NCBI GenBank assembly: GCA_963705255.1 | Contig: OY970061.1 | Coordinates: 2,048,001 to 2,112,000, forward strand | Length of the DNA stretch: 64,000 nucleotides | Reading direction: 5' to 3' | Source of the DNA: an uncultured Methanoregulaceae archaeon | GTDB lineage: Archaea; Halobacteriota; Methanomicrobia; Methanomicrobiales; Methanospirillaceae | In this document: positions 7,477 through 38,647 of the stretch, piece by piece | How positions within the stretch are numbered: position 1 is the first letter of the stretch | Layout: each line of letters begins with the position of its first letter | The notes under the pieces: generated by a model | Databases searched by the model: none | Seen by the model: only the letters and a program-made list of their open reading frames with translations | Told to the model about the DNA's origin: nothing | Made by a program: the position numbers and the translations under genes

Positions 7477-7768
7477 AAATTCGAAGGGTGATTGATGTCA
7501 CCCTTCTCATCCTCGAATTTCGCTTTGCTCAATTCTTCGGAGATCGAAGAATTCTCGCGAATTCGGTCGAAGAACTTCGTTCAGGAGAAGATTCTTCTCC
7601 TGTCTCAAGTCCGATGACTTTCGACAAGAGGGATTTTTCAAATCCCTCTGCTTCATCCTTAAGGGATGAAGCATTCTGATGACCCTCAGCATTCTCCTCC
7701 TCCAGGTCGGAGAGGTTTATCAAAACCTCGATGAGGAGAAGGGAGGTGTAAGCCGACCTTCGACTTTC
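7477..7768. repeat. Modular hairpin repeat, copy A
   Basis: Chain of stems (GAAGGGTGA/TCACCCTTC, AATTCTTCG/CGAAGAATT, AGAGGGATTT/AAATCCCTCT, GCTTCATCC/GGATGAAGC, GAGGTTT/AAACCTC); blocks shared with copies at 12745 and 23807. Confidence 0.85.
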
Positions 7769-7981
7769 TTATGGACCTATCGGACGTCGGAGAAACCTGA
7801 TGGTTTCTTCTTTTCCTTCAGGTCTGATGACCTGTCGGACAAAAAAAACGACCGGCATGTACGCCGAACCCCTGAACACGACCAGCACAATGTCCAGCAC
7901 CATCCCGAGGGCCAGCCCTGCAGCGATGCCGACGATGAGGCGCCTGATCGTGCGGTCTTCGAAAATGGTGGAGTCCGTCAT
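7769..7981 (-). CDS. Small membrane protein (70 aa)
   Basis: ATG preceded by AAGGA; hydrophobic segment LIVGIAAGLALGMVLDIVLVVF. Confidence 0.55.
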   Translation of the reverse strand: MTDSTIFEDRTIRRLIVGIAAGLALGMVLDIVLVVFRGSAYMPVVFFVRQVIRPEGKEETIRFLRRPIGP

Positions 7982-8101
7982 GGTTATTTCCTTACTTATC
8001 TTGCGTCATGCTGGTTCTAGAAATTTTTTGCGGGGTTCAGCTTTGTTATTTCCATCACATCCAGGCACCGGACGGTGCCAGTGCACGGGTCATCATGCAT
8101 C

Positions 8102-8335
8102 TCAGCCGTCCCCGCTCCCGAACACGTCCGGGAAATATTCCCGGACCCGGCGGCGTTCCCGCTCGTTTAGCTCGCGGAGTTCCGGGCCGGCGAGCCCTAT
8201 GATGAATGCCGCCGCATCATCGCGGCACCTGAATATGCGGATCACCGGCCCGTCTCCCGCCGCGATCTGGTACCGGAGGTGAAAACAGGTCTCCTTTGCG
8301 GGCACCGGGCGGGCGCGGGAGTATTGTGCTGCCAT
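8102..8335 (-). CDS. Small hypothetical protein (77 aa)
   Basis: ATG ORF divergent from the XRE gene, plausible composition. Confidence 0.45.
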   Translation of the reverse strand: MAAQYSRARPVPAKETCFHLRYQIAAGDGPVIRIFRCRDDAAAFIIGLAGPELRELNERERRRVREYFPDVFGSGDG

Positions 8336-8511
8336 TATCCCGTATACCGGTGACTGGTGAGGTTTTCCCGGAACGACAGGGTACCACGTTCAGACCAAGC
8401 ATCTATAGCCGGGGGTGTCCGATCGGGATTTTCTTTGGGGTCCGGGGTTTGACGAATTTGATTCACCAGGCACCAAGGAATGTGTTGGCGGGCGGGGAGG
8501 ATAAATTTGTC

Positions 8512-8541
8512 GACTATAGTCTGCGATAGGCATTAGCCTAT
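8512..8541. promoter_or_regulatory. Palindromic operator pair upstream of the XRE gene
   Basis: GACTATAGTC (8512-8521) and ATAGGC-atta-GCCTAT (8526-8541), about 30-55 bp before the start. Confidence 0.55.
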
Positions 8542-8568
8542 TTTCAACTGAATCTCATTTGAGTGAAA

Positions 8569-8832
8569 ATGCACGAGGAAGAAATTTTTGGCAAGATGCT
8601 GCAGGAAGAGCGGAAAGCCAAAAAAATTTCCCAGGAGAAACTTGCAAAACTCGCCGGCCTCGACCGGACCTTCATCAGCCTCATCGAGAACGGAAAACGG
8701 AGCCCGACATTTTCTACTATTTTGAAGATCTGTTCAGTTCTCGAGATCGCTCCTTCTGAACTATTCTCGATTTACGAGAAGAAGGATCCGGATTACAGGG
8801 CGAAAAAAGGTGGGAAGCGTGAGAGGTTTTGA
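8569..8832 (+). CDS. XRE-family HTH regulator, restriction-modification controller (C protein)-like
   Basis: SQEKLAKLAGLDRTFISLIENGKRSPT helix-turn-helix signature. Confidence 0.9.
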   Translation: MHEEEIFGKMLQEERKAKKISQEKLAKLAGLDRTFISLIENGKRSPTFSTILKICSVLEIAPSELFSIYEKKDPDYRAKKGGKRERF

Positions 8833-8983
8833 CGCTCAATGGGGCTGGTCCGGCACCATTCACGATATTCTCCGATTGAATAAACCGCACTGGCTCGCAT
8901 CCATGAATGTAGCAGAACCTCTTTAATAAAAAATGCAACCATTTATCGTTTTCAGATAATAAAAGAGAAGCAGTGAGCCTGTC

Positions 8984-9430
8984 GTGAAGATATACCTGGA
9001 CGTATGCTGCCTCTGCCGGCCTTTCGATAACCATCATGAGACCAGGATACGGTTGGAGACGGAGGCAATTCTTACGATCCTGAAACGCTGTTCCCTCGAT
9101 TGGGAACTGGTCACGAGTACCGCAGTGCTGTACGAGGTTGGCCTCATCGGGGATCCGGTAAGAAGATCCCATGTCATGAGGCTGACGAGTCGCGCCCGAA
9201 AGACGATAACTGTTGATGAAGCCCTGTTGTTGCGGGCAGAAGAGATCGAAAAGGATGGAATCATGGGAATGGATGCCATTCATATTGCGTGTGCTGAGAG
9301 AGCCGGTGCGGTGTTCCTGACAACGGATGACGAGGTGATAAGGATTATGAAGAAGCATACCCCAGATATATCCATACGGGTCGATAACCCGCTGCGCTGG
9401 CTGATGGAGTTGAACCATGACGGAGAGTAA
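8984..9430 (+). CDS. PIN-domain (VapC-like) toxin
   Basis: IYLDVCC..RPFD, MDAIHIACA and FLTTDD acidic PIN motifs. Confidence 0.9.
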   Translation: MKIYLDVCCLCRPFDNHHETRIRLETEAILTILKRCSLDWELVTSTAVLYEVGLIGDPVRRSHVMRLTSRARKTITVDEALLLRAEEIEKDGIMGMDAIHIACAERAGAVFLTTDDEVIRIMKKHTPDISIRVDNPLRWLMELNHDGE

Positions 9431-9623
9431 GACCATTGCCCAGATCCAGAGTGAAGGGTACGATGCCCTGGTAAATGCTCTTGGACCGGAGGATGCCGTC
9501 CGGTTTATCCGGAGTTTCGATCCCGGGAGTGGCGATTATACAAAAGAGCGGAAGAAAACGTTTAAGAAAAAGACGGCAAAGCAGATCGGGAAAGAGATCC
9601 TTGAGCTGCAGAAGACGATCTGA
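9417..9623 (+). CDS. Small partner protein (putative antitoxin) of the PIN toxin
   Basis: Overlaps the PIN gene; ALGPEDAVRFIRSFDPGSGDYTKER is typical of PIN-associated small proteins. Confidence 0.75.
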   Translation: MTESKTIAQIQSEGYDALVNALGPEDAVRFIRSFDPGSGDYTKERKKTFKKKTAKQIGKEILELQKTI

Positions 9624-9840
9624 CTCTATTTTCACTTCTCTATCGTGTCGATCTCCGCAATGAACTCCATCAGCCGTTCGAGTTCCGGCCCGGACCATCG
9701 TTGTTTTTACTCCATCCCGTTCGACCACCGCACTAGTACCGCCAGGACCACGATGAGCACGAAGTCGAAGACTAGGATTACCAAACTAATTCCGGATACT
9801 TTCATAGTATACCGGTAAGCGGATTTCGGTATCCTCCACT

Positions 9841-9909
9841 TAACGTTTCTAACGCGATCGTCTACCGGTCAGGGGTCCGGTAGAGAGTTGCGTTAGAATC
9901 GTTATATAT
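9841..9909. promoter_or_regulatory. 28-bp-arm imperfect inverted repeat abutting a TATA-like box
   Basis: Arms 9841-9868 and 9877-9904 are 23/28 complementary; TTATATAT at 9902-9909. Confidence 0.6.
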
Positions 9910-10260
9910 CGCGTAACGAAATCCCCATTCGTGGACAGCCGGGGGTTGTCCCGAAAAGAAATGATGGGTTCACCAGGCGACGAACTTCGTTGAACCCGGT
10001 CCGCCCGCAGGCATGTGATCATTATCGTACATTCTTATGAGGATTTTCCCGTGCCCGGGTTGACAGCAAGGGAAGTGATAGCATAGACTCCACATACGGA
10101 AAGCAGAACAAAATGGCGGTATCCGGCAGGATACCGTCCTGGTTAACGAAGGAGAGCGGCCACTTACACCTTACCGGGGATGTACTCCGGGGGCAGGGAT
10201 TCCCGGCAGGGGTATCCGGTCAGCCTGCAGGAAAAAACCGGAAGCGGAGGCGGGCACAGG

Positions 10261-10530
10261 ATGCCGAAGAGTAAATCCGTGACTGAAGGCGGTATTCCGC
10301 TCTATCTCCTGCCTCAGGCAATCGCACGGCAGATCACCAGGATCGGCAACTCAGTGTACCGCATCAGCGTGAAACGGACGCACTGGCATTATTACAACAT
10401 ATCCGTCAGGACAAAATCCCTGCCAAAGGAGCTTGCCCCGGCACGGGTTATCCAACGTGCTTCCCCGCAGGAGAGGGAACCGGACAATCATTATCCTGTC
10501 ATCCAGGAGGATAAACGGTGTACGGTATGA
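10261..10530 (+). CDS. Basic hypothetical protein (89 aa)
   Basis: ATG ORF whose stop overlaps the next start (ATGA). Confidence 0.6.
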   Translation: MPKSKSVTEGGIPLYLLPQAIARQITRIGNSVYRISVKRTHWHYYNISVRTKSLPKELAPARVIQRASPQEREPDNHYPVIQEDKRCTV

Positions 10531-10916
10531 GCCGGGGACCACACCCGGGAAGGACGCTCGCCGTTGCCATCCCGATCGCAGAAATGCGGGGGACTGTCCA
10601 TATCGTCCGGCAGGCCCGCGGGAGCCTGTATGATTTCGTGATCTCGACTGCGGTCCCGGTCGCGTTTGTCCGCGTGAAGTATACGGACTGGATTCTCATG
10701 ACGCTCCCGGAGGCAGAAGCATACTACCGTGATGTGATCAATGGCCTCCGTGCCATTGCATCAACAGAGAATGTTTCGCGTGAACTCTGGCTGCGTTCCC
10801 GGCATGGGACCTGGCGGTTCTTCCGGGTTGGCGAGAACGGTCCCGTTGAGCTCTCACGGAACGGCATGGTATTCAATACACCCGGTAAGGAAAAAGTCAA
10901 ATCTCGTCAGGTATAG
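10527..10916 (+). CDS. Hjc-like PD-(D/E)XK-fold protein with an atypical active site
   Basis: IVRQARGS-LYD(36)FVI...FVR(49)VK(51)...GTWRFFRV pattern parallels archaeal Holliday junction resolvase motifs. Confidence 0.55.
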   Translation: MSRGPHPGRTLAVAIPIAEMRGTVHIVRQARGSLYDFVISTAVPVAFVRVKYTDWILMTLPEAEAYYRDVINGLRAIASTENVSRELWLRSRHGTWRFFRVGENGPVELSRNGMVFNTPGKEKVKSRQV

Positions 10917-11344
10917 GGAAGTGAGGAAGAAGGGATCTCCCCTCTTTTACCTCTCTTCTGATGGGGGGGATCCTGATCCTCTTTTGGGGGCACCTCCCAA
11001 ATCTCCCCTATACGGGCTCCGATTGGCCATTTTTCCGGATCCAGAGGAGGTATTTCGTCAAAATGAGACATTATTTCGCTAAGATTTGCTCATTTTCACG
11101 TCAGTAATCCAGAGACGCTATTTGGGTGTATTTGGAAGGCGAAAAACAGCTTGGATCGGCCTTCAGGCCAGGAGCGCCGGGAGGATGGTTAATGGGGCTT
11201 TTCAATTACGATCCCATTTTTGCGAAACCCTCCGGCAGATTTCCTGCCACGGATTATCTCCAAATGCCAGCAAAACCCTCCGTTTTGCCCTCTGAAAATT
11301 TATTCAGCCAAGCCCATCTGCTCATAAAACCCATACTGATATGT

Positions 11345-11515
11345 CCAAAGGAGTTCTGCAGAACCCCGTGGACGAGAAGAATGACGAAGTCATTCTTCAC
11401 TGTCAAAGGGGCCCTGGAGACACCAAAAGAAAACGAGGTTCGGTGAACCTTCGAGAGGTCGAAGAAATGTTTCACATTTCTTCTCCTCTTCGAGGTTCGA
11501 ATCGAACCTCTCAGA
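11345..11515. repeat. Modular hairpin repeat, copy B (leader of 11538 gene)
   Basis: GAAGAATGAC-gaa-GTCATTCTTC, GAAGAAATGT-ttc-ACATTTCTTC, GAGGTTCG-aat-CGAACCTC; 11479-11500 is the exact reverse complement of 23858-23879. Confidence 0.85.
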
Positions 11516-11537
11516 AACAAAAGGAGGAACCAAAAAC

Positions 11538-12041
11538 ATGGCAGATTTCGTACAGAAAACAACCGTAAAGACAGCGGTTCGCATCCTCGCGAACCCGATA
11601 GCAGACGCAGCGGCGTTCAACACGATCGTCCAGTCGGTCATCACGACCAACCCGTTTGCATGCACAGCCTATGAGACCGCCGGCGTCAGCCACCAGCCGG
11701 TAGAGAAGACCAAGGAGTCCTACGTGGCGAAGATCGTGTACCAGGATTCCGACGCGAAGACCGTCGGGACCGACTCCGGCAGGTTCAGCTCCATCGCCGG
11801 GTTCAATGCCGGCGCCACGGCACTCCTCGGGAATGCAGCCCTCACCGCAGCCCACGGGGGCACCCCGGCCCGGGACACGGCACACGAGACCTACTCGGCA
11901 ACCCTGAAGTGTCACGACGCGAACGGGGAGATCTACATGGTCACATTCGGCCGGCAGAGTGTGAGCCTCACCTCGTACTCGGACGATGCGATCCGGACCA
12001 AGGTCGATACCTGGGCCGACTCGGTGGGGGCCCTGGCATAA
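11538..12041 (+). CDS. Uncharacterised 167-aa Ala/Thr-rich protein with an internal duplication
   Basis: Strong AAGGAGG RBS, host-like codon usage, two similar halves (AAAFN..ESYVAKIVYQD / AGFN..ETYSATLKCHD). Confidence 0.85.
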   Translation: MADFVQKTTVKTAVRILANPIADAAAFNTIVQSVITTNPFACTAYETAGVSHQPVEKTKESYVAKIVYQDSDAKTVGTDSGRFSSIAGFNAGATALLGNAALTAAHGGTPARDTAHETYSATLKCHDANGEIYMVTFGRQSVSLTSYSDDAIRTKVDTWADSVGALA

Positions 12042-12064
12042 CGTGTTCTGGGCGTGAAGTCGCC

Positions 12065-12094
12065 AAAGGGGGTGACCAGCGGTCACCTCCCTTT
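12065..12094 (+). terminator. Intercistronic hairpin (attenuator or RNA-stabilising element)
   Basis: AAAGGGGGTGACC-agc-GGTCACCTCCCTTT just after the 12041 stop. Confidence 0.5.
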
Positions 12095-12127
12095 CTGGCC
12101 CGTCCATCCTATCACGGAGGCAAAACC

Positions 12128-12292
12128 ATGGAAACTGAAATTCTGGGATTGCTGCTCGGGGCCGTCCTCCCGCTCTATCCCCTGCTGTTCGCCATCTACC
12201 AGAAGACCGGCAGGTATGACGAGATCGTCGAGGAGTTCAAAAGACTCCGGGACGAGCACGAGCATTACCGGGAGGCGCATCATGGGGGATGA
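12128..12292 (+). CDS. Small membrane-anchored protein (54 aa; TM plus charged helix)
   Basis: GGAGG RBS; METEILGLLLGAVLPLYPLLFAIY followed by a coiled-coil-like tail; overlaps the next gene. Confidence 0.7.
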   Translation: METEILGLLLGAVLPLYPLLFAIYQKTGRYDEIVEEFKRLRDEHEHYREAHHGG

Positions 12293-12746
12293 GATCGCAC
12301 CGGTCGCAACCGTGACCGGCCTGTACCGGGGCACCTTCAGCGGCCTCGAACCGCTCACGAAGGACACCCCGCTCACGCTCGACGAGGTTCGGCGCAACCC
12401 GGTTTTCTACGAGCTGGAACTGCACCCGGAGCAAGAGAAGGCGAACCTGATCATCGATGTGATCTATGACAACATGTCGCCGCTGCGGCTGCAGGACCTG
12501 ATGCGGGGAACGGATCTCCCGCGGGGCGTCCGGTTCTGGCCGGACTGGTTCGAGATCCCGCCCTACCGGGAGATGCGCGATATTGACGGCCGCAGGGTCT
12601 ACCCGCGCTCGCCGGGCATCCACACGGTCCGTATCCGGACCGCGAAGCGGAAACTGGGAAATGTCCGGGACTTCAGCCCGGCAAACGGCGGGTACACGAG
12701 TCCGGTGTTTGAGATTACCATAGTCGCGGACAGGAACAACGTTTGA
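12282..12746 (+). CDS. Uncharacterised 154-aa beta/Pro-rich protein
   Basis: GGAGG RBS before ATG 12282, host-like codon usage. Confidence 0.75.
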   Translation: MGDEIAPVATVTGLYRGTFSGLEPLTKDTPLTLDEVRRNPVFYELELHPEQEKANLIIDVIYDNMSPLRLQDLMRGTDLPRGVRFWPDWFEIPPYREMRDIDGRRVYPRSPGIHTVRIRTAKRKLGNVRDFSPANGGYTSPVFEITIVADRNNV

Positions 12747-12870
12747 GAATGTTGAGGGTCATCAGACCCGAAACAGGAGAATGTCGAGAGTCATCAGATT
12801 TGAGACATGAGAAGACCGAAGGTCTTCGAATGAACGAAGTTCTTCGACTGAATTGAAAGTCATCACATCC
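12745..12870. repeat. Modular hairpin repeat, copy C (inverted relative to copy A)
   Basis: Three colinear blocks match the reverse complement of copy A at 21/22, 30/34 and 23/24 nt. Confidence 0.85.
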
Positions 12871-13021
12871 GGGCAACCCTCTTCAGGAGGGAGGACGATG
12901 TTTGAGAACGAGCTGCAGGCCCCGGCCGCCGTCTGCGGTTCCAGGCTCCTGCCCGGGATTATTTTTTTCACCTGCCGCTCCGCGATGACTGGTTCGGGAC
13001 TTTGACGGGATCAAACCCACC

Positions 13022-14185
13022 CTACTCCGTCGCCACCTTCACGCACTCCTCGATCGTCCCGATCCGGGCCACCGCAGCACACATGTCCGGGACGTACGCG
13101 AGCGCCTTGCCGCTGTTCACCATGATCGCCTCGTACTGCTCCATGACCGGTGAGACCACCATGCAGGTGTCCGCAAAGACCCGGGCCCCGCTCTTCTCGA
13201 TAGAGTCGGCAACCCGCTGGCTGGCCTCGATGACGCCCTGCGCAGCAAAGACGTAGAGCGGCATCGTGACCAGTTTTCCCTTCAGGAGCCGGGCGATCTC
13301 TTCCAGTTCTTCAGGGGAGCAGTGGGGGCACCCGACCGCGACCGCATCGACCGGGATCTCTTTGAACAGGTGCCGGATCTCACCGGATTCCACGGCGATA
13401 GTCTCAAGGCCGGTGAGATCGAAGGGCACCTTCACCGCCTCGGGCGTGATGCCCTCCACATGGTAGAGCGCCACGGCCCCGGTCGCCGCCATCGCCGCCC
13501 CGAGGGCCTTGAGCTGGTCGCGGTCCGGGTTTATCCCTGAGAAGAACGGGATGCGATTGCCTGCCAGTTTTCCCGCATGGTAGCCAAGCGCCCCGAAATG
13601 TGCGATGGACCAGTCACGGGTATCGGCCTGCACCCGGATGACCAGCTGCGGCTTCCGGTTTTTTGCAAGGTGAAGGCCGTAGCAGGGGGTCTTCCCGACC
13701 AGTGCGGCGGCAAGGGCGCCGGGGCCCCCTTCCCGGTTCGTCCGGGCACCGATGACCGAGTTCGCGTAGCTGACCGCGGACGACTCCGACCATGCGAGGT
13801 GGTCGCCAAAGCTCGTCTCGTGCAGGTAGTAGGGCGTGCAGGTGCATTCGAGGCCGATGCCGAGCCGCTCGTAGGCAGCGACCACGGCCTGCTGCTTCTG
13901 CGCAAAGTCCTCGTCCACGCCCATCTCCTGCCAGCGCCCGCGGGGCATCCCTATCGGGTTCAGCACGGCCGGGACCACGGCTTTTGCGTCGAGCGAGTTG
14001 AGCCACTGGAGGCCGTACTCGCCGATCGTCTTGTAGGACGCGCCGCTCACCTGTGCGCTCCGGATCCTGACCAGCCGTTCCGCACCGAAGACCTTCCCCA
14101 GCGCGACGAGGAGCTCCAGCATCCTCTGCCGGGTCTCGCCCTCTTCTCCGGCAAGGACCCGTTCGTCCTCAGGTTCGAGCTGCAT
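13022..14185 (-). CDS. Aconitase X large subunit (probable phosphomevalonate dehydratase large subunit)
   Basis: SGASYKTIG, CTCTPY, AWSESSA, GARTNREG and GCPHCS motifs; adjacent to ubiD/ubiX. Confidence 0.88.
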   Translation of the reverse strand: MQLEPEDERVLAGEEGETRQRMLELLVALGKVFGAERLVRIRSAQVSGASYKTIGEYGLQWLNSLDAKAVVPAVLNPIGMPRGRWQEMGVDEDFAQKQQAVVAAYERLGIGLECTCTPYYLHETSFGDHLAWSESSAVSYANSVIGARTNREGGPGALAAALVGKTPCYGLHLAKNRKPQLVIRVQADTRDWSIAHFGALGYHAGKLAGNRIPFFSGINPDRDQLKALGAAMAATGAVALYHVEGITPEAVKVPFDLTGLETIAVESGEIRHLFKEIPVDAVAVGCPHCSPEELEEIARLLKGKLVTMPLYVFAAQGVIEASQRVADSIEKSGARVFADTCMVVSPVMEQYEAIMVNSGKALAYVPDMCAAVARIGTIEECVKVATE

Positions 14186-14189
14186 CGGT

Positions 14190-15424
14190 TCACCACGTCG
14201 CACGGGAGAATTCGTCCTCGCGCCCGAGCACCATCGTTGCGTCGATCCCGACCTTGACGTTCGTGCCGTCCTCCAGCTGGCAGGGGTCGAGGGACGACCC
14301 TCTCACGCCGGTGATCACCATGATGTCCCGGTCGCCGCTGACCCGGGTCGCGACCGCGTACTCCACGTCGTTGGGGTCGCAGGGGTCGATGTCCTCGTCA
14401 ACGACAACGACGTGCTTGAGCGAGGTGTGGGCGGCGAATGCGGCCATGATCGCGTTCTTTGCATCGCCCTGCGTGCTCTTTTTGATCTGGATCACCGCGT
14501 GGAGGTAGCCGCAGCCCCCCTTGGTCAGGACCACGTTTCTCACTTCGGTAACCCCGGCCACTGCGCGGTAGATCTTCGGTTCATACGGGCAACCCATCAG
14601 CACTTTATGCTCGTCTCCCCCGGGCAGGATACCATGATAGATGAAGTCCGTTTTCGTGTGCATACCGCTGAACTCGATGACGGGCTGGCGCCGGACAGGA
14701 TCGTAGGTCCCGGTGATATCGACAAACGGCCCTTCGTCCGTGAGATCGGGGCCGATGAACCCTTCGAGCACGATCTCCGCATCGGGCACAAGCACCCCGT
14801 TGCTGCACTTCCGTACCGGATTTCGCCGCCGAGAAGTTCTGCTGCATACCCGAGCTCCATGCCGGTCGGCACCCGGGTGCAGCTCGCAAACGTGACTGCC
14901 GGGTGGGTCCCGATGGTCACAGCGATGGGCAGTTTCCCGCCTTCCGCGAGCGCTTTTTTGAGCATCACGTGCGTGTGCCGCCCCTCGACAAGCCGGGCCG
15001 CCACCCGGTGGTCGTCGAGCACCAGCATCCGGTGGATCGAAGCGTTCTCCACGCCGTCGAACCGCGAGAAGACGATAGCCGAAGTGAGGTACTTCCCTGC
15101 GTCTTTCGGGAAGTGGTGCATGATCGGCAGGCGGGAGAGGTCGGGTTTTTTCATCGGCAGGGTGCCGTCCTGCACCACCTTCCCGTCAAATTTTGCATCG
15201 GCAAGGGTCTTCACGATCTGTCTCTCGTCGATGCCGAGGGCAACGGAGAGCGAGGCCCGGCTCGCGGTGAGGTTCATGACCGCCCGCCCCCCGCCGATGT
15301 TGTGGAAGAACAGGAGCTTGTCGGTGGTGGCTGCCATCTTCGGGGCCTGCATCTCTGCCGAGACCGGCTCGTCGATATCGATGACCAGGTCCCGCTTTCG
15401 CATCTTCTCTATGAATTCACGCAT
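14190..15424 (-). CDS. UbiD-family decarboxylase (probable anhydromevalonate phosphate decarboxylase); frameshift near 14815
   Basis: [21 protein letters not shown] and VVVVDEDID motifs split over two ORFs. Confidence 0.88.
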
Positions 15425-15971: not shown

Positions 15972-16055
15972 GGTTGCGTTCCGCTCTCCTGTGATACCAA
16001 TGTCGGGTTTATGACAAAAAGAGTTTATGCCGGGATCCGCCCGCCCGGGCCCTTG

Positions 16056-16502: not shown

Positions 16503-16534
16503 ATTCCTTTCACCATTTTTCCATCATAGAGAGA

Positions 16535-17013: not shown

Positions 17014-17117
17014 GGGGAATGTTTGGGAACCGTGCTATATTATTTTTTATTTGTGGAATGGTGTCATTTCCGCTGGACTTCAGCGATGGAATCCCTGCCA
17101 GGCCGGCATGTGCCGGA

Positions 17118-19265: not shown

Positions 19266-19455
19266 CCCATTCCTGTTACAATCGATGTATCCACCCGGGT
19301 GTTGAAAAAAATCCCGTGAAATTCGCACGATCCCGTCACCAGCACGGTAAAACCCGCAGAGGACCTTCAACCACGTTACAATCGACCACATGAAAAAATT
19401 AAAAAAGTATTTCAGGGTTCAATCCAGATATCCAGTCGATGATGTAGGAGTGGAG

Positions 19456-21763: not shown

Positions 21764-21867
21764 ACTCCCTCCTTTTTTTGAGCAGACATCCGGTTCAGGG
21801 TAGTTATCGGACAATAATCCATCCCGAAGTCTTTTTTCCCTGCCAGTGAAACAGTGATACTGACACC

Positions 21868-22833
21868 ATGTTCGGGTTTTTTTCTTATAAGAAAGCGGTG
21901 ACCGGCCAGTCCGCTGGTGCCAAACAGCAGACCGCCCGGCTCTCGGTCATCTCCAATATATCCCTTGTTGTCATGAAACTCGCTGTCGGGTCAGCCGTTG
22001 GCTCGCTCGCCATCATCTCCGAAGCCCTTCACTCGGGGATAGACCTCCTCGCCGCCCTTATTGCGTACTTATCGATAAAGAAAGCAAGTGAGCCGCCGGA
22101 CGAGATCCACCGGTTCGGGCATGGCAAATTCGAGGACATATCCGGTTTTTTCGAGGCCCTGCTCATCTTTGCTGCCGCTGTCCTGATCATGTACGAAGCC
22201 GTCATGAAACTCATCCACGGTGAAACCGGCCTGGACACCGGCGCGCTGCTGTATGCCGGTATCGCTGTCATGGGGGTTTCGGCGGTGGTGAATTTTTACG
22301 TTTCCGGTCGCCTGATGAATGTGGCAAAAGCGACCGAGTCCATCGCCCTTGAAAGCGACGCCTGGCACCTCCGCACCGACGTCTATACCTCCCTTGGGAT
22401 CATGGCAGGGCTGGTCCTGATCAAACTCACCGGTATCGTGATTCTCGACCAGCTCTTTGCTTTCGGGGTTGCCGTTGTTATCATGCACGCAGCATACGAA
22501 CTGACGGTACGCTCCTTTGGCACCCTCACCGATCGCCGCCTCTCCGATAAGGAGGAGGACCGGATCAAGCAGATCCTGTGCGATCATGCGACGGACTATG
22601 CCAATTTCCATGCCCTGAGGACGAGAAGGTCCGGTGCCGACCGGTTCATCGACCTCCACCTGGTCGTGGCAAAAGATACCACGGTCCAGGAAGCGCACGA
22701 TCTTTCCGATCATCTCGAGTCCGATATCCTTCTTGAGTTCCCGAGGGCGAGCATCTCCATCCATGTGGAACCGTGCAGCGGGGACTGCAACGACTGCTCC
22801 TCTCTGTGCAGGGGACATAAGCCTGCAGTCTGA
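21868..22833 (+). CDS. Cation diffusion facilitator (FieF-like) transporter
   Basis: EALHSGID, HRFGHGKFE, DAWHLRTD and IHVEP motifs. Confidence 0.93.
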   Translation: MFGFFSYKKAVTGQSAGAKQQTARLSVISNISLVVMKLAVGSAVGSLAIISEALHSGIDLLAALIAYLSIKKASEPPDEIHRFGHGKFEDISGFFEALLIFAAAVLIMYEAVMKLIHGETGLDTGALLYAGIAVMGVSAVVNFYVSGRLMNVAKATESIALESDAWHLRTDVYTSLGIMAGLVLIKLTGIVILDQLFAFGVAVVIMHAAYELTVRSFGTLTDRRLSDKEEDRIKQILCDHATDYANFHALRTRRSGADRFIDLHLVVAKDTTVQEAHDLSDHLESDILLEFPRASISIHVEPCSGDCNDCSSLCRGHKPAV

Positions 22834-23091
22834 TCGCAGCTTCTGGTAGTATTGCCTGGTACCCTCCCCTCCGGTACGCCCCTGATCGTACCCTTTGTTT
22901 CCGCACACAGCACTTGCCCGGAGGGAGCAAAGGCCTCTGCCGTTATCGCCCCAGGGCCGGCAGGGTGTCTTTTGCCTTCTCCGGTACATTCTCTCCAACA
23001 CTACCGTGCGGGAATTCTTCCATCCCACTCATCCTGCTGCCATGGCAGGTTCACAACCTATTTCCGATCCGGGGGACACTACCAGTGAGGT

Positions 23092-23535
23092 ATGGCAATG
23101 CGACTGGTGGTTACATTACGAAACCGCGAAGCAGTGACAAAGGGGTCAACGGGTGGCCCTGCAGCTGGTGTCCTGCCCGACACCTACCGCGAACGGCTGA
23201 TCAAGTATATCCCGGTAGAAGTGATCGTGCTCTTCGTAGCGGCATATGGCACGGGCTACGCTGTGCTGGGTACCGAGCCGCTTTTTCCCAGGATTGCCCT
23301 CTGGATAGTTCTTGTGGGGATCATAGGGACACCTCTCTATCTCTGGAAGGCCGGACAGGTGACCGACCTGGTACAGCTGTTCATATCGACTCTTGGGTTT
23401 GTCCTCTGGGTGTTTGCTCTCGGAGTGCTCCCCATTTCAGATCTTCCGTGGTATAACCAGGTGGTCGCCGCGCTGGTCCTGCCGGTGTACGTCTTTGCTT
23501 CGCCACTCGCCGTGGGCATTCCGGACCGCTGGTGA
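23092..23535 (+). CDS. Membrane hypothetical protein (about 4 TM)
   Basis: Hydrophobic helices; ERLIKYIPVE motif. Confidence 0.65.
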   Translation: MAMRLVVTLRNREAVTKGSTGGPAAGVLPDTYRERLIKYIPVEVIVLFVAAYGTGYAVLGTEPLFPRIALWIVLVGIIGTPLYLWKAGQVTDLVQLFISTLGFVLWVFALGVLPISDLPWYNQVVAALVLPVYVFASPLAVGIPDRW

Positions 23536-23724
23536 GTGCTCCTATGCCGGGTCACCGCGATCAAAAAAAAGCGCGGTCAGCCGGAAAGAGGCAGCGCCGG
23601 AATGAAAACAGGTCGGGAGGAAAAGGACGGGAAAGGATCATAGTATAGCCGGAAAATGATAAAAAAATGGGCTTTGTAGAAATTCTATTTTATCGCATGA
23701 TTCGCTCATATTCTTCAACGGAAT

Positions 23725-24115
23725 GAGCGTGACCCCCTCTCTCAAGTCGAAGGGGGGAGGCAACGCAAGGGAGCATCCCCTTGAATCTCTGAGAGGTCTT
23801 CGGAATGTCGAAGGTCGGCTTTTGCCTCCCTTCTCCTTCTCGGGATTTGATAACCCCTCGAACCTCGAAGAGGAGAAGATTTACAAAGTAAATCTTCGAC
23901 CCCTTTTTCGGGATTTTTCATAAACCTTCTGAGGGACTATCGCAATTTTGGGGGAAATCTGCCGTTGCCCAAGGCAAGGGCAGATTCGAGAAGATGCGAG
24001 AGCATCTTCGCTGTGCCCTGGTGGCAGGCAATTCGAAGAACGCTGACGCGTTCTTCTCTTGTCTCCATGACTTCGTCATGTCGACATCCCCAAGAGCGAC
24101 TGCTTGTCTCTATAA
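23725..24115. repeat. Modular hairpin repeat, copy D (longest)
   Basis: 23807-23877 is about 80% identical to the reverse complement of 7692-7764; stems GAAGATTTAC-aaa-GTAAATCTTC, GAAGATGC-gaga-GCATCTTC, GAAGAACGC-tgac-GCGTTCTTC, CATGAC-ttc-GTCATG. Confidence 0.85.
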
Positions 24116-24148
24116 GGATTTCTACAGAACCAAACAATGAGAAAGGAC

Positions 24149-24815
24149 TTACAGTTCCCCGAGGTCCTTCCAGTAGTCGGTACTCATGCTTCCAGAATTC
24201 TTTGTTGAATGACACCAGGCGTTTGAAGTACTCTTTGCGCTCGTGGTGGTATTTTTCCTGGGCCGGGTCTTTCCACTTCGTCCTGACGGCATCGGCCAGT
24301 CTTCTCCCGAGTTCCTTTGCCTGGTGTTCTCCGCCGGTGATGGCATTCGGGTCTGCGCCGACAAGCACTCCGACTCTTCCTACCGTTGTTGCCCCGAGGT
24401 TCTGGAGCGTGACGTTCATGTAGTCGGCAACCTCGTCTGCCATGGAGCCCCCCGCCGTGCAGACACCGCACCCGTACTTCCCGGCGAATGACTGGCAGTG
24501 GATCGAGTCGGCCATCCGGTCGAGTACCGTTTTGAGCTGGGCCGTGACCTGGTTGATATAATTCGGTGAACCGAGCACGATCCCGTCCGCGTCCATCATC
24601 TTTTCGAGAAGCGCGGGAAAGTCGTCATCGTTGACGCACTCGCCTTTCGCATAACAGGTCCCGCATGCAGTGCAGTACTTTATATCGAGGCCACAGATGT
24701 CTATGAACGTTACATCCGCTCCCGCCTGGCGCGCTCCTTCGAGCACCCCCATGACAAGCCGACGGGTCTGGCTCTTCTCCCCTTTCGGGCTCGCGTTGAT
24801 TCCGATGATCTTCAC
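24149..24815 (-). CDS. Iron-sulfur flavoprotein / flavodoxin-family protein (frameshift near 24180)
   Basis: INASPKG, CTACGTC....C and GSPNY motifs; natural end ...YDYWKDLGEL* lies in another frame. Confidence 0.85.
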
Positions 24816-24958
24816 GATATCACCTACTGTACTGGTGCCTGCCGGGTATCATAAAGATGTGCGGTACCCGCTCATAACCGGAATGTTCCGGCGGAATACA
24901 TCTGCAAAAGGGAGGACACTTATAGGCGGTACGGACCATCACTTTTTGTGAATCAACC

Positions 24959-25348
24959 ATGATCATCCGCGATGTCACCGATTGCTCTCATGAACGGGTC
25001 ATTGACCGGTCCCTTCTCTGCGAGCTCCTCCATCCCGACAGGGTGGAAGGGACAGGAAGTCTCGGGTGCAGTGTCGCCCACGCGATCGTCCCGCACGGTG
25101 AATCGACTCTTCCGCATGTATTGAAAACATCATCGGAACTCTACTATATCCTCGAAGGGACGGGAGAGATGCATATCGGCCGCGAGAGCACGCCGGTTCA
25201 TGGAGGCCAGATTGTATACATTCCCCGTGGTGAGCAGCAGCATATCCGTAATTCCGGCTCAGGAGATCTTGTATTTCTCTGCATCGTTGCCCCGAAATGG
25301 CAGGCCGCGGACGAGGAACTTGTCAGATATCCTGCCGGTCAAAAGTAA
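24959..25348 (+). CDS. Cupin-domain protein
   Basis: PH.....ELYYILEG.GEM and IPRGEQQHIRN motifs. Confidence 0.85.
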   Translation: MIIRDVTDCSHERVIDRSLLCELLHPDRVEGTGSLGCSVAHAIVPHGESTLPHVLKTSSELYYILEGTGEMHIGRESTPVHGGQIVYIPRGEQQHIRNSGSGDLVFLCIVAPKWQAADEELVRYPAGQK

Positions 25349-25411
25349 CCTGAGCGAGGAATGGCGTACCGATGCGGATGTTTTTTATAAATTGAGCAAT
25401 ATTCCTCATCT

Positions 25412-25774
25412 ATGGGTATCACAGGTCTAAGTCAGGAAAACAGGACACGGGTATTCTTCTTCCTGATCCTTTTTGCTGCCGTGCTCTGGGCAGTATTCCT
25501 CCTGCAGCGCGGCGAGATATTCCAGCTCAGTATCCTGGTCGCATCGCTTGCCGCCATCAACCCGGTGGTAGGACTTATCGAAGTGAGAAATCCCCGGAAA
25601 GCACGGTCCCTGTTCTTCCTGTATCTTCTTATCCTTGTGGGCCTCCTGTGGGCGACGTTTCTCATTGTCCTCGGGGTTCAGCTCTGGATCAGCCTCTTCC
25701 TCATCATCGTTGCCATCGGGATACCCGCAATCCTCAAGATGACTACCCATGAACTGGATCCGGTTGTGAAGTAA
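25412..25774 (+). CDS. Small 4-TM membrane protein
   Basis: Hydrophobicity pattern. Confidence 0.6.
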   Translation: MGITGLSQENRTRVFFFLILFAAVLWAVFLLQRGEIFQLSILVASLAAINPVVGLIEVRNPRKARSLFFLYLLILVGLLWATFLIVLGVQLWISLFLIIVAIGIPAILKMTTHELDPVVK

Positions 25775-25983
25775 CATATTTACGATTTTATCACGAAACC
25801 GATACCAGGCAGGAAAATTATCCCTTACGAGAGGAAAGGCCGGGGGTACAGGGTATCCTGTCGTCAAAACCGGAATGAAAATGCATCGATGGCGTCTTTG
25901 CTGGTTGCTGTGACCGGCCCGGTTGCCGGGACAATAGTCCACCGGATTTCTGACAATTCAAAAAGAGACAGGATCAAAAAAAG

Positions 25984-26577
25984 TTATTCCCAGTAATATT
26001 TTACAAACAGCTTAGATTTCTGGATGGATGGCGTGAAGACCCGGAGTGCAACCGGTATTATCAGGACGGTCACGATAATGTTGCCGACCAGCCAGCTGGA
26101 GAAGACACTGCCCATCTGGCCGCCAGGGATTACGTTGCCGAGCCCGAGGGTCCAGGCACCCCATGCGGCACCGACGATATTGTTGATCACGACGCCGAAG
26201 AGGAGGAGGAGGGATATGTCCCGCCGGTTTTTCAGCGTCAGGTCGACTTCGAAGGTACGGAGCGCCACCAGCGGGATAAGGACCTGGAGGAGTCCGGCAA
26301 CAGCCCAGTATATCGCGACATCGGGATGGCTGGCAATGGTCCCGGCGGAGAGGAGCCCTGACCCGATCAGCGTGCCGGCATACGCGGCAATTGCACCATA
26401 GGCGCCAAACCAGAGCGTGAAGAGGATCATGAACGCAACGGCAGGATACAGCCAGGAGACCCCGCTCACGCCCGCGGGGAAGAGAGCACCGGAGAGCTGG
26501 GCGAGGAGGATGTTGACAACGATGAGAACGAGCGTGAGAATGACAAAGGAGTACGTGGGTTCATGGACGTTTTTCAT
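25984..26577 (-). CDS. MASE1-like integral membrane protein
   Basis: WLYPAVA..LFTLWFG.YG and WLVGN motifs, multiple TM helices. Confidence 0.65.
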   Translation of the reverse strand: MKNVHEPTYSFVILTLVLIVVNILLAQLSGALFPAGVSGVSWLYPAVAFMILFTLWFGAYGAIAAYAGTLIGSGLLSAGTIASHPDVAIYWAVAGLLQVLIPLVALRTFEVDLTLKNRRDISLLLLFGVVINNIVGAAWGAWTLGLGNVIPGGQMGSVFSSWLVGNIIVTVLIIPVALRVFTPSIQKSKLFVKYYWE

Positions 26578-26811
26578 GAATTCACCTGTATTCCATATGG
26601 TACGTGTATATATAGTATTTTTCCGGGTTCTGGCAAGTTGTCGGGAGTTCGACTATTCCGGAATCTTTGTCAAAAATCGGCAGCTCGCAATGTAAACTTT
26701 GAGGATTGTTGAAAGCAGTTATCATCATGGGATAAAAGTTAGTGTTAACTGTCGTGGATTAGAAGAAAAAATTTGTTACTGTGGTAGCGGACGATTATAA
26801 TTAATGTACCA

Positions 26812-27383
26812 TTAATCGTCGTTGTAATCGCTTAAAGGTACATTCTTGCTGATTCTCTCAAGCTCTCTGTGAATGTCAATATAAAGCGGGACTGTATCAC
26901 GCCCTTTCAATTTTTGAGGATCTATGATTGCTTCATGAAAATCAAACCTTTTGTAGAACCCAACGGCTTCTGGTTCGCATCGACCGTAATAATTCTGCAA
27001 CCGATATATGCTGAGAATCGGATCCAGATTGCGTAAATCTTTCTAAGCATACAGCGGCCTATTCCCTGTCGTTCAAATTCTTGATGGGTGGCTAAACGTG
27101 CAATTTTTAGTGCAGGATATGTACTATATGTAAAACCGGGATCTCCATCTCCATTAATGAGTTCCTTCTTCTTGATGACGTCAGTGACCAGAGTGAAATA
27201 CCCCGCAAGCCGACCTTTATAAAAAACGAGTCGTGTAACTGATGTCCGGTCTAACTGATTCTCATAGGCATCCTCAATTAAAAAGCCCTTCAATTCATCA
27301 TTATTGCATTTAAAAGTGGGAAGATGATGAAGATAATCAGCAGTCAGAACTAAAAAGTCTAGATCTTCACAGCCGATACTCAT
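26812..27383 (-). CDS. GNAT-family acetyltransferase toxin (frameshift near 26970)
   Basis: FKCNNDELKGFL, YPALKIARLA, RQGIG and VDA[K]PEAVGFYKRFDF motifs. Confidence 0.85.
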
Positions 27384-27530
27384 TTAAAGACGTGATCTCT
27401 CAGCTAACTCAGCCGCTTCCCTAATCAGCTTACGACCCGCATCAGTATATTTCGGATTATCAATATATTCTTGAAATCTGATAGACTCCTCGTGATCAAG
27501 GACGAGTCCCAACTCAATAGGTTTTGCCAT
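27384..27530 (-). CDS. 48-aa putative antitoxin of the GNAT toxin (not in ORF track)
   Basis: MAKPIELGLVLDHEESIRFQEYIDNPKYTDAGRKLIREAAELAERSRL*; stop abuts the toxin ATG. Confidence 0.75.
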   Translation of the reverse strand: MAKPIELGLVLDHEESIRFQEYIDNPKYTDAGRKLIREAAELAERSRL

Positions 27531-27545
27531 CTCTCATCTCCCCTA

Positions 27546-27565
27546 TGTTAACACGAGTGTTAACA
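27546..27565. promoter_or_regulatory. Perfect palindromic operator upstream of the GNAT TA pair
   Basis: TGTTAACAC-ga-GTGTTAACA, 15 bp upstream of the antitoxin start. Confidence 0.65.
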
Positions 27566-27760
27566 CTTTGTTAGCAATGTTATATTATAATTACTTAAAG
27601 ATTATTCCATTTTACTAGAGAACACTCTCTTATTTTATAGAGAAAAATTCCATAACTGGTTGTTATCTCACATCATCATGAATTCATTTGTTCTTATGTT
27701 TTTACCAACAGCCACTTATCACACCCATTAGAATCTATCTAAAAGAAAAAAATATTGAGA

Positions 27761-27970
27761 TTATTTTACTCGTGCCATCTGGCTTGCATTCCGTATCAAT
27801 ACCATCCACTTGGTATCCCCCTCAACAACAATCCCGCACGCCTCAGCGGGTGTCTTTCCTTTTAACGCTTCGTGCCCACGGACAAAGTTGTGGTAAATCT
27901 GCATTCCGGGGAGGATCTTTGTATCGACTTTCTTTAACCCGCGCATTGCTTGTTCCCGGTCCCGAATCAA
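27761..27970 (-). mobile_element. C-terminal remnant of a DDE transposase (IS6-like)
   Basis: MRGLKK...IYHNFVRGHEALKGKTPAEACGI...KW..LI.NA; 5' portion missing. Confidence 0.7.
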
Positions 27971-28097
27971 CTTGACAGAACCTTGTTGCGGTCCGGCCGG
28001 AAGCGGTACCGTTCCGGTCTTTCAGCCCGGCCGGAACAGTGATATGCAGCAATTATTATTGCAGCGATACCGAACTATAGATTGAGGAAGGTCGCTC

Positions 28098-29204
28098 ATG
28101 AAGAAGTCACAGGACCCGGATCTGGCTTCAGTATCTGCGGAAGAGGCTGAACTGGTACAGGCAGCGATGCAGGCCGTGAGCGAACGCGACAACGCAGGAC
28201 TCGAAGGGCTCGTCGGCGGCCTTGATTCCGTCATCATCACCACCGAACCGGACAACCTCGTCCCCGCCGTCTACGAACTGCTGAGGTATACCGGCCTCTC
28301 GTGCCAGGAGGCATTTTTTAACGCCGAAGCGCAGAGCTATGTCCTTGGCCTCCCGGGATCAGCGTCCCTTATCATACGGTCACGCGGCGGGGCGCCAAAC
28401 CCGTTTGCCGGTGCCAATAAAGCCCGGCTGACTGCACACCTCCCCAATACACGGCTCGAGACGTTCGTCTTCTCCACGCCGGATATCCGGCAGTACGTGG
28501 CGATCCAGAAGAAAAGGGGGGTGAAGTTCCTCACTGCCGGTCCCCGGGAATCGGATTACTTCCTGTTCATCCAGACCGTCCCCTCCCCGTTCACCGGAAA
28601 CTCGGTCGGGTTCATCGAATGGCAGGATGATATGAAGACCTATGCACCACAGGGGGCGACCCGTGTCTCACCTGACCTTGAAAAGCCGTCGTTCCGCCAC
28701 CTCGGCAATATCTTTGAGCTCGACCATGTTGCCACCCGTGTGCGGGCCCAGGACCGGAAGGCCGCCATCCTCGAATTCGTCGGTCTCACCAATTACCATT
28801 ACGATTTCGGCGTGCATGTCAGGTCCCTCAACTCGATCACGAGCGTGGCACGGCGCAACCCTGACGATTTTGCCATGGTGTTCACTTCCGGGATCACCCC
28901 CTTCGTCTCGGAAGAGGTGTCCGGGCCTACCGAGAAGTTCATCCGGAACTACGGGACCCGGGCCCACCATATGGCGTTCCGGACCGGGAATATCGAGGCG
29001 ACGATAAAGAACCTGAAAAAAGACGGGATGAAGTTCCTGCTCGAGCTGGCAGGTTCTGAAGAGGAGGGGCTCAAACAGATCTTCTCGGAGCCTTCGCCCT
29101 CCACCCTGATCGTCAACGAATACATCCACCGGTATGGTGGTTTTGACGGCTTTTTTACCCGATCCAACGTAGAAAAACTGACCGGGGCAACCGCACGACA
29201 GTAA
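28098..29204 (+). CDS. VOC-superfamily, 4-hydroxyphenylpyruvate dioxygenase-like protein
   Basis: LDHVATRV, AHHMAF, LKQIFS and NEYIHRYGGFDGFF motifs. Confidence 0.7.
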   Translation: MKKSQDPDLASVSAEEAELVQAAMQAVSERDNAGLEGLVGGLDSVIITTEPDNLVPAVYELLRYTGLSCQEAFFNAEAQSYVLGLPGSASLIIRSRGGAPNPFAGANKARLTAHLPNTRLETFVFSTPDIRQYVAIQKKRGVKFLTAGPRESDYFLFIQTVPSPFTGNSVGFIEWQDDMKTYAPQGATRVSPDLEKPSFRHLGNIFELDHVATRVRAQDRKAAILEFVGLTNYHYDFGVHVRSLNSITSVARRNPDDFAMVFTSGITPFVSEEVSGPTEKFIRNYGTRAHHMAFRTGNIEATIKNLKKDGMKFLLELAGSEEEGLKQIFSEPSPSTLIVNEYIHRYGGFDGFFTRSNVEKLTGATARQ

Positions 29205-29274
29205 AAAAAGATTATCCGGCTTCAGGCATTCCGGGTTATTGCCGGGCGGGGCCCTGAAAGATGTTTTTGACGGT

Positions 29275-29781
29275 TCAGGCCGGCTGGGCATTCATGTCAG
29301 GCGGGATCAGGTGCCTGAGTATGAGTTCCGGGACCTGGTCGGATGTCCTGACGGTCATGGTGAAGTCCGCGTTTCCTCCGGTCGAGCCGAGATAGGTCAG
29401 GGTTATCTGGAAGTCCGTGTCAAAGACCGGGATACCCATAACAGTTATCCGTGCGTGCCGGGGGCTGATCACCCGTTCCTGTCCGACCACCAGTTCCTCT
29501 TTTGTCCCGTCCACGTCTGCCACCGTCCCGTTGTTATACGACACGACAAGGATATGGCTGCTCCCGATCGTGATCGGCTCCCCGTCCGGGAGGGTGACCC
29601 GGTACGTCGTGGTGTACGGGAGCGCCGTCCCGGTCGTCGTATCGAGCACTGCGATGGTGAGGGTAAAAACAGCGAGGGTGGCAATGACGATGACCAGGAG
29701 TACGATGCCGAGCAGGACCTTCGTCCCGGTACTCCAGCCTCGTGCGCCCTTTGTATCAGCACTTCGGGAACTTTCCGCCAT
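29275..29781 (-). CDS. Membrane-anchored hypothetical protein
   Basis: N-terminal TM helix followed by a beta-rich domain. Confidence 0.7.
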   Translation of the reverse strand: MAESSRSADTKGARGWSTGTKVLLGIVLLVIVIATLAVFTLTIAVLDTTTGTALPYTTTYRVTLPDGEPITIGSSHILVVSYNNGTVADVDGTKEELVVGQERVISPRHARITVMGIPVFDTDFQITLTYLGSTGGNADFTMTVRTSDQVPELILRHLIPPDMNAQPA

Positions 29782-29875
29782 AGGTCTTCCATTGTACAGG
29801 AGTTCCCGGAATATTATATGGGTTGTGGATTTGTCGTGTCCCGGCCCGCTCATCCCGTGGTGCTGGTACTATCAA

Positions 29876-30060
29876 AGTCGAAGAAATTTTGATGAATCTC
29901 ATCTCCTGCCTGTTTTTCTCTCAGTGCTGATACTGACATGGTCGAAGAAATTCTTTTTTGAATTTCTTCTCCAGCCTGCCCTTCCCTGCGGGATCCGAGA
30001 GGTTCGACAGAACCTCGAGGAGGAGGAGAATTCATCAGAATTCTTCGACCAAGGCAGGCT
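29876..30060. repeat. Modular hairpin repeat, copy E
   Basis: GGTCGAAGAAATTC-t6-GAATTTCTTCTCC and GAGAGGTTCGA..GAACCTCGAGGAGGAG...TTCTTCGACC, the latter enclosed by AGCCTGCC/GGCAGGCT. Confidence 0.8.

Positions 30061-36227: not shown

Positions 36228-38647
<2,420 letters not shown>

Follow-up and report, generated by a model that had tools for sequence, protein, structure and literature searches.

The subject of this analysis is a set of five intergenic hairpin tracts (A to E) in a window of 64,000 nucleotides, the whole stretch of DNA analysed, from an uncultured Methanoregulaceae archaeon (contig OY970061.1, positions 2,048,001 to 2,112,000). The tracts probably represent two nested layers of selfish repeat DNA, a family of MITEs (miniature inverted-repeat transposable elements) and a family of hairpin modules. 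The hairpins recur genome-wide, and tract D lies inside a recent MITE insertion; the tracts are therefore mobile repeat DNA in the style of bacterial repetitive extragenic palindromes (REPs) and not a conserved RNA gene. The first layer is a genus-wide Methanoregula MITE with a skeleton of about 250 bp, 15-bp terminal inverted repeats (TIRs, GGCTCTGTAGAAATC) and an 8-bp target-site duplication (TSD). In the second layer, modules of 20-30 nt have filled three slots of the MITE in this lineage; outside it they stand alone as about 150 single hairpins or are chained into the free arrays A, B, C and E.

The host genome (G000) is that of a peat methanogen of the genus Methanoregula and consists of one contig of 2,600,650 bp with 54.6% G+C. 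A sister genome about 96% identical to it (G057; locus L027) served as the reference for presence and absence of copies, and the synteny comparison of the two covers 400 kb. A preliminary description of the window, made from its letters, had reported at least five loci with chains of hairpins assembled from shared modules. All five tracts are built as described, and their appearance as a dispersed modular mosaic, similar to REPs and bacterial interspersed mosaic elements (BIMEs), is supported by copies throughout the genome. The size of the family was understated: the 2.6-Mb genome has hairpin modules at about 200 places. The features of the window are as follows (coordinates, strand, identity).

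7477-7848, no strand assigned: tract A, a free array of about 10 hairpins in both orientations, without MITE arms
11345-11515, no strand assigned: tract B, free array that lies upstream of the open reading frame (ORF) 11538-12041
12745-12870, plus: tract C, four chained GA-closed hairpins, all on the plus strand
23662-23669, no strand assigned: left TSD of the MITE, AAAAAATG, present as a single copy in the sister genome
23670-24131, plus (L-arm to R-arm): tract D, a complete 462-bp MITE, identified by TIRs, TSD, arm profiles and the empty site in G057 (L027)
23670-23743, plus: MITE L-arm, the 15-bp TIR GGCTTTGTAGAAATT and a conserved arm with the last part GTGACCCCCTCTCTC
23670-23684 and 24117-24131: TIRs of tract D
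23785-23899, no strand assigned: MITE slot 2, filled with hairpins, delimited by comparison with canonical copies of about 253 bp
23956-24087, no strand assigned: MITE slot 3, five hairpins of GA type and TC type
24088-24131, plus: MITE R-arm, starting with CCCCAAGAGCG and ending with the TIR GATTTCTACAGAACC
24132-24139, no strand assigned: right TSD of the MITE, AAACAATG, identical to the left copy at 7 of 8 positions
29876-30060, no strand assigned: tract E, free array in the gap between two divergent genes
58842-59037, minus: sixth copy, a MITE remnant of about 196 bp without GA hairpins and with a truncated L-arm TIR

Copies, insertion and distribution of the MITE

Long intergenic repeat loci in G000 have inverted ends in common, from which the 15-bp TIR consensus was derived. 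A search with up to 3 mismatches gave 136 TIR matches, including 27 plus/minus pairs 100-900 bp apart, of which at least 3 look like chance pairs. The 8 bp directly outside the two ends were identical at 8/8 positions in 7 pairs, 7/8 in 7, 6/8 in 5 and 5/8 or fewer in 8. Agreement at 6 or more positions was thus seen in 19/27 pairs, compared to 1/27 in a control shifted by 20 bp, in which 25/27 pairs agreed at 3 positions or fewer. Profiles of the two arms detected 51 L-arms and 45 R-arms in the genome, counts that necessarily include the copies from which the profiles were built. Of these arms, 13 L-arms and 7 R-arms are solo, and the others combine into 38 paired copies of 157-626 bp. In G000 the family thus has the properties of a MITE: TIRs, a TSD of fixed length, an empty site in a close relative, and small, non-coding elements in many copies.

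The site of tract D is empty in the sister genome, where the flanks abut at a single AAAAAATG, and the tract is a MITE insertion that postdates the split of the two genomes. The preliminary description had placed its limits at 23725-24115 and proposed that the tracts act as single-stranded DNA or cruciform; the limits are corrected to 23670-24131, and the hairpins are the interior of a TIR- and TSD-bounded MITE, a class that moves as double-stranded DNA. Other copies also differ between the genomes. Two MITEs of 352 and 180 bp, whose flanks overlap by 8 and 7 bp, are found only in G057, the copy at locus L095 has an empty site in G000, and two further G000 copies are absent from G057, with less clean flanks. 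By their transposition the modules inside the MITEs are spread passively.

The MITE targets are AT-rich 8-mers, mostly located directly behind genes. After 5 of the 27 TIR pairs were dropped, the crude gene calls gave 22 oriented pairs, of which 9 have convergent neighbours, 13 have co-directional neighbours and none has divergent neighbours. At the tract D site, an FMN-reductase-type gene of G057 ends (...DLGEL-stop) 10 nt ahead of the target, so the MITE struck an AT-rich stretch right behind a stop codon; this stretch may be the oligo-T termination signal of the gene. In G000 the corresponding gene (window 23937-24815, minus strand) is frameshifted near its end relative to the sister gene, which ends ...HEYDYWKDLGEL-stop, and its frame continues for about 65 codons into the MITE.

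The distribution of the MITE differs from that of the hairpins. The L-arm is multi-copy in 17/24 genomes of the same genus and in 2/16 genomes of other genera, with 82 matches in G057. Two other Methanoregula species carry the MITE without GA hairpins (257 bp at L008 and 252 bp at L011), and G000 itself has about six canonical copies of 253 bp that lack them. Relative to this skeleton, the extra modules of tract D lie in three slots (23744-23752, 23785-23899 and 23956-24087); slot 2 contains the GA-closed hairpin 23874-23899 and the 22-nt match to tract B described below. Matches to the conserved foot of the hairpin (the anchor pattern, also defined below) are patchy across genomes: 173 in G000, 178 in G019, 34 in G002, 29 in G022, 34 in G038 and 14 in G025, with 0-12 in most others; the same pattern read backwards, used as a control, gave 0-6 matches. 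The MITE-rich genomes G007, G009 and G013 have at most 3 anchor matches. These patchy counts, the hairpin-free skeletons and the MITE-rich genomes with few anchors indicate that the hairpin layer is separate from the MITE layer, relative to which it is younger or burst-like. The same hairpin design with other stems occurs in G019, G025 and G038, the last two from other families of the order, in part as tandem units of 55 nt. At one contig end in G019 (L131, C14:14450-14732) there are at least three such tandem units, each with two GA-closed hairpins read on the opposite strand, which indicates that head-to-tail amplification of the two-hairpin unit occurs as well.

Transposase genes in G000 are few. 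PF01610 (ISL3), PF00872 (IS256) and PF12762 (IS1595) gave no match in this genome, PF01609 (IS4/5) matched two fragments only, and no multi-copy insertion sequence (IS) was found; the long repeats checked are FrhB/FdhB, DUF3821 and glycosyltransferase paralogues. Two intact ORFs of 395 aa match PF13610 (DDE_Tnp_IS240) at C1:2147365-2148549 and C1:2152908-2154095, 35-42 kb beyond the end of the window. They have a zinc-ribbon/SWIM-like N-terminus, are 78% identical at the DNA level within the ORF only, and lie in a hypervariable stretch of about 11 kb in which G000 and G057 differ. No other intact DDE gene was found. The MITE ends, searched with up to 4 mismatches, are absent at 12 PF13610 loci of the genus and at the G057 copy. 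An 8-bp target duplication is the value of the IS6/IS26 family, and the TSD of the MITE fits it. The TIR consensus also follows the rule stated for nearly all short bacterial members of this family, in which the ends start with GG and have G at position 7 (PMC6807381). These end features make an IS6/IS26 affinity of the MITE a lead and not a membership.

The hairpin module and its turnover

The hairpin modules share one design in which a fixed foot carries a free top. The typical module of 20-30 nt reads (G)GA-GAAGA-N2..5-loop-N2..5-TCTTC-GA-C, and in many cases another GA-closed hairpin, with an NTCA loop, stands before it, which gives a two-hairpin unit of about 55 nt. The stem at 7736-7763 in tract A, singled out in the preliminary description, reads as claimed (GA-GAAGG-GA-GG-TGTAAG-CC-GA-CCTTC-GA, with the loop TGTAAG). 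The exact 22-nt reverse-complement match between B (11479-11500) and D (23858-23879) is real and forms part of a 47-nt match at 79% identity. An inverse similarity of A and D had been reported over 71 nt; the repeat search found it at 83%, over a shorter span of 46 nt (7723-7768 and 23803-23848). The same search matched A to C twice, and the presence of modules on both strands of E was confirmed. Predicted folding of the tracts as single-stranded DNA is strong, with z = -9.6 for A and z = -6.3 for D, and for either tract 0/100 shuffles folded as well.

Copies extend far beyond the window. Short-word BLAST of the five tracts against G000 gave 293 high-scoring segment pairs at dozens of loci, and a 13-mer census of the genome found 880 repeat loci with 56% of their bases in the crude intergenic set, compared to 26% genome-wide. 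Among 4319 perfect hairpins of G000 (stem of at least 6, loop of 3-6), 302 are flanked by GA/GA on either strand (139 and 163), while the next commonest flank pair occurs 53 times. In 137 hairpins the stem continues past a 2x2 mismatch into an outer helix of 3 bp, and in 59 of these the mismatch is GA/GA on either strand. The anchor pattern GAGAAGA-N7..26-TCTTCGA, which specifies the conserved foot only and does not require pairing, has 174 matches, and 141 of them are paired fully up to a loop of 3-6 nt; counted by strand, there are 78 forward and 95 reverse matches compared to 1 and 0 for the backwards control. By location, the 275 GA-closed hairpins fall into paired MITEs (54), other intergenic DNA (174) and crude gene calls (47).

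Covariation of the stems had been proposed from the comparison of B and D. It holds for the family as a whole: 81/109 distinct anchor inserts pair fully, compared to 107/2180 shuffled inserts, 37 different apical stems are represented, and each apical position shows 2-4 Watson-Crick pair types with few non-pairs, from which it follows that the stems covary. The B/D case itself is largely exchange of whole modules. After the 22-mer, B (as reverse complement) continues GAGAAGA-AATGT-GAA-ACATT-TCTTCGACC and D continues GAGAAGA-TTTAC-AAA-GTAAA-TCTTCGACC, and this pair is one case of many different tops over a common stem base. Much of the apparent covariation between the two is the swapping of entire apical modules, for which paired point changes are not required.

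The arm profiles found no L-arm or R-arm in A, B, C or E. Tract A ends in an A8 run (T8 on the minus strand). Tract B is within a segment duplicated at genome 2467529-2469163 with 99% identity, and tract C begins at the stop codon of ORF 12054-12746. Tract E, in which two GA hairpins are nested in the 3' arm of another hairpin, is flanked by a gene at 29275-29853 (minus strand) and the aspartyl-tRNA synthetase gene at 30104-31399 (plus strand). A, B and C are contained in a 5.8-kb stretch (window 7200-13022) that is absent at the corresponding locus of G057, where 728 bp are found instead. Paralogues of this stretch lie at genome 2.428-2.431 and 2.4675-2.471 Mb, and its genes encode an HTH_3 protein (8563-8832), a PIN-domain protein (8984-9430) and several small ORF products without Pfam match, with the arrays interleaved.

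Comparison of related arrays shows that whole blocks are gained or lost, as indels, at or inside existing hairpins and without target duplication. Paralogues of tract A at genome 2427640-2428010 and 2430480-2430760 have common flanks and differ by whole modules; among the three arrays there is a swapped hairpin top, two inserted hairpins and a 66-nt two-hairpin block placed in the loop of another hairpin. Between orthologous arrays of G000 and G057, the blocks that differ measure 64 nt (tract E), about 70 and 121 nt, 51 and 55 nt, and 329 nt; a 329-bp difference is the interior of a MITE whose ends G057 also has. The sister genome does carry tract E, without the 64 extra bases of G000 at window 29872-29935. 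Presence and absence between orthologous loci, together with target duplications, had been suggested as a check; the MITE in tract D has both an empty site and an 8-bp TSD, whereas the blocks of the free arrays show no duplication. The blocks may be copied by copy-choice (template switching) or by recombination at the common GAAGA/TCTTC stem bases, perhaps assisted by a structure-specific enzyme.

Strand asymmetry and competing explanations

The GA-closed hairpins are asymmetric between strands, in agreement with the earlier observation of GA...GA closure on one strand. Among 275 such hairpins, 105 have triloops, which on the GA strand are GNA in 54 cases and TNC in 7; they include 25 C-GAA-G and 12 C-GCA-G loops on the same strand as the closure. 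The 139 tetraloops follow the same pattern (41 GNNA and 2 TNNC; 77 NTCA and 1 TGAN), while control hairpins are nearly symmetric (104 GNA and 87 TNC). The purine strand thus has both the tandem G.A closure and the C(GNA)G, GNNA and NTCA loops, and therefore one strand is shaped to fold alone. This single-strand signature is real, but it is not diagnostic of DNA versus RNA. The strand may fold as extruded or replication-exposed single-stranded DNA and not as a dedicated RNA. For the host, the consequences are likely near-neutral; at most, the hairpins might act in either orientation as barriers or stabilisers at transcript ends.

Several observations weigh against reading the tracts as two nested layers of selfish DNA with a strand that folds as DNA. 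No autonomous element with the MITE TIRs was found in the searches described above, and the two IS240-type ORFs lack such ends; the MITE-rich genomes G007, G009, G013 and G019 have no PF13610 match, and the presence of PF13610 does not track MITE abundance. Block junctions in the free arrays have neither target duplication nor a common target, and microhomology is limited to 3-5 nt or less. The loop-type counts come from related copies and are not independent events, and common descent could account in part for the coupling of GA closure to loop type. RNA as well as DNA is stabilised by tandem G.A pairs and GNRA-like loops. Elements that depend on single-stranded DNA often show replichore bias, and the GA strand shows none in G000, where the weak GC skew leaves little power to detect it. 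The gene-context counts were obtained with a crude gene caller (2310 calls covering 74% of the genome).

A neutral origin is an unlikely alternative. Intra-strand template switching would maintain perfect quasi-palindromes and unequal recombination would shuffle them, with no strand selected to fold and no factor recognising them. Perfect stems in 219/275 GA-closed hairpins are in its favour, and short repeats bound some block indels (TCAGA at L096 and the 64-nt repeat in E). Conservation also fits, as the 13 free hairpins common to both genomes are about 96% identical (summed by row), which is about the genome average. However, template switching should erase the GA/GA mismatch, yet this is the commonest closure in the genome and is coupled by strand to the loop type, and the design recurs with other stems in other families of the order (34 anchors in G038 and 14 in G025).

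A more specific proposal about the modules, which we offer tentatively and regard as speculative, is that GA-closed hairpins are the archaeal counterpart of REPs. They would be modules recognised by their fold, with a tandem-G.A foot, a GAAGA/TCTTC base and a free top, and would be copied into hairpins and into the slots of the MITE by a structure-specific enzyme of non-HUH type common to Methanomicrobiales. If true, this would explain both the retention of the mismatch and the patchy bursts (173 anchors in G000, 178 in G019 and 34 in G038, against mostly 12 or fewer). REPINs and REP-like systems are stated to be unknown from archaea in a preprint (bioRxiv 10.1101/2021.07.10.451892), and our literature searches found no published description of Methanoregula MITEs or hairpin repeats. 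The family is a well-delimited case, since it combines a datable MITE with empty sites and hairpins that point to folded-strand recognition without an HUH transposase, and it provides a system for asking how small palindromes multiply in archaea. It is also a warning to annotators that hairpin-rich "structured RNA candidates" in such genomes are mobile repeats able to extend ORFs.

Structured RNA modules are an improbable explanation. The hairpins would act in transcripts as 3'-end stabilisers or as docking sites of a protein that binds k-turns or G.A pairs, such as L7Ae, with the repeats serving only as carriers. GNNA loops and tandem sheared G.A pairs are well known as RNA motifs, the MITEs and many arrays lie directly behind stop codons, the four GA hairpins of tract C are in the sense of the upstream gene, and one stem in that tract requires two G.T pairs. 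Across the genome, however, the orientation of the GA strand relative to flanking genes is unbiased (four classes of 49, 50, 44 and 31; n = 174), and GA-type and TC-type hairpins alternate, with both orientations within one array. The stems of GA-closed hairpins show no wobble preference, as G.T/T.G mismatches (14) are no commoner than A.C/C.A mismatches (12). The internal loop is a symmetric 2x2 loop, GA/GA in 59/137 cases, and is not a k-turn because it lacks the 3-nt bulge. Copies are present or absent between genomes that are about 96% identical. A match to a known Rfam family, which would have spoken against a new repeat class, was not obtained: the whole window has 0 matches at the gathering threshold and three far below it at E<=1, the best with 29 bits against a gathering value of 96. 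The earlier conclusion that the copies are not simple terminators is likewise supported.

A true REP/REPIN system with REP-associated tyrosine transposases (RAYTs), or a palindrome-associated IS200/IS605 system in which a Y1 HUH transposase moves hairpins as single-stranded DNA, is close to refuted here. Short extragenic palindromes, mosaics of alternating orientation and block insertion without target duplication are all in its favour. A look for an HUH gene (TnpA/RAYT) beside the copies had been suggested; PF01797 (Y1/HUH) has 0 matches in the one-contig genome, with positive controls in 6/14 reference genomes, and there is no replichore bias. The hairpin foot is GA...GA-C and carries no tag of the GTAG or CGTC type. 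The absence of both a Y1/HUH gene and such a tag indicates that the hairpins are not members of a REP-RAYT system.

Integron-like cassettes, in which the arrays would be folded attC-like sites between the small cassettes of the 5.8-kb stretch with A, B and C, are extremely improbable: attC sites have a conserved base and a variable top as these hairpins do, the stretch is missing at the sister locus and holds small ORFs without Pfam match and an HTH/PIN pair, each followed by an array, but the sole tyrosine recombinase is about 490 kb away, the sites occur in both orientations, about 200 of them have no cassette context, and no R''/R' core sites were seen by eye. The recombinase gene (the single PF00589 match, C1:2540082-2540543) has a MITE copy (2540686-2540922) about 140 bp away, which is probably a coincidence.

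Other repeats were noted in the genome. Window 19291-19397 holds about 107 bp between 11-bp direct repeats (GTTACAATCGA); it is absent from the sister genome and is not a hairpin module. The two copies of a 154-nt direct repeat (37084-37237 and 37904-38057, 82% identity) are 820 bp apart and probably belong to paralogous coding sequence. Elsewhere in G000 there is a 42-copy GC-rich hairpin (core CCCCGCCTCAGGGCC), a further type of TIR-bounded element (for example 1267970-1268475) and an array of clustered regularly interspaced short palindromic repeats (CRISPR) with about 30 repeats (504943-506887).

Comparison with known systems

Pneumococcal BOX elements and the neisserial intergenic mosaic elements (NIMEs) and Correia elements consist of shuffled or nested boxes, have strong predicted folding and are intergenic. 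The tracts resemble them in modular boxes, folding and location, and differ in sequence, host and the GA-closed unit with a free top.

The closest likeness of tract D is to prokaryotic MITEs filed with the IS6/IS26 family, to which ISfinder assigns MITEBth2 and MITEHarch3 (PMC6807381). Both are short non-coding elements with TIRs and a fixed 8-bp TSD, dispersed in dozens of copies and missing from some sites in relatives, and the ends here have the GG start and the G at position 7 of nearly all short bacterial IS6/IS26 members (PMC6807381). Unlike these MITEs, no transposase gene was found within the same ends in G000 or at the 12 IS240-type loci of the genus, and the interior is a conserved skeleton of about 250 bp with three slots that collect modules, not a deletion derivative of an IS.

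The hairpin modules are comparable to REPs, BIMEs and REPINs, which are high-copy extragenic imperfect palindromes in mosaic clusters of both orientations, located mostly behind genes and turned over rapidly between close relatives (PMC3116915; PMC3733652; bioRxiv 10.1101/2021.07.10.451892). The end of the REP palindrome has a conserved tag, GTAG or CGTC (PMC3733652). In the present family the host is an archaeon, there is no RAYT or other Y1 transposase, a tandem G.A foot takes the place of the tag, and many modules are inside a transposon bounded by TIRs and a TSD.

At the level of the single hairpin, the likeness is to DNA mini-hairpins. Those that combine C(GNA)G loops with sheared G.A pairs are extra stable, and the same loops and the same closure strand are found here. 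The mini-hairpin is a physical motif whose features stabilise RNA too, whereas the family described here is a genetic element.

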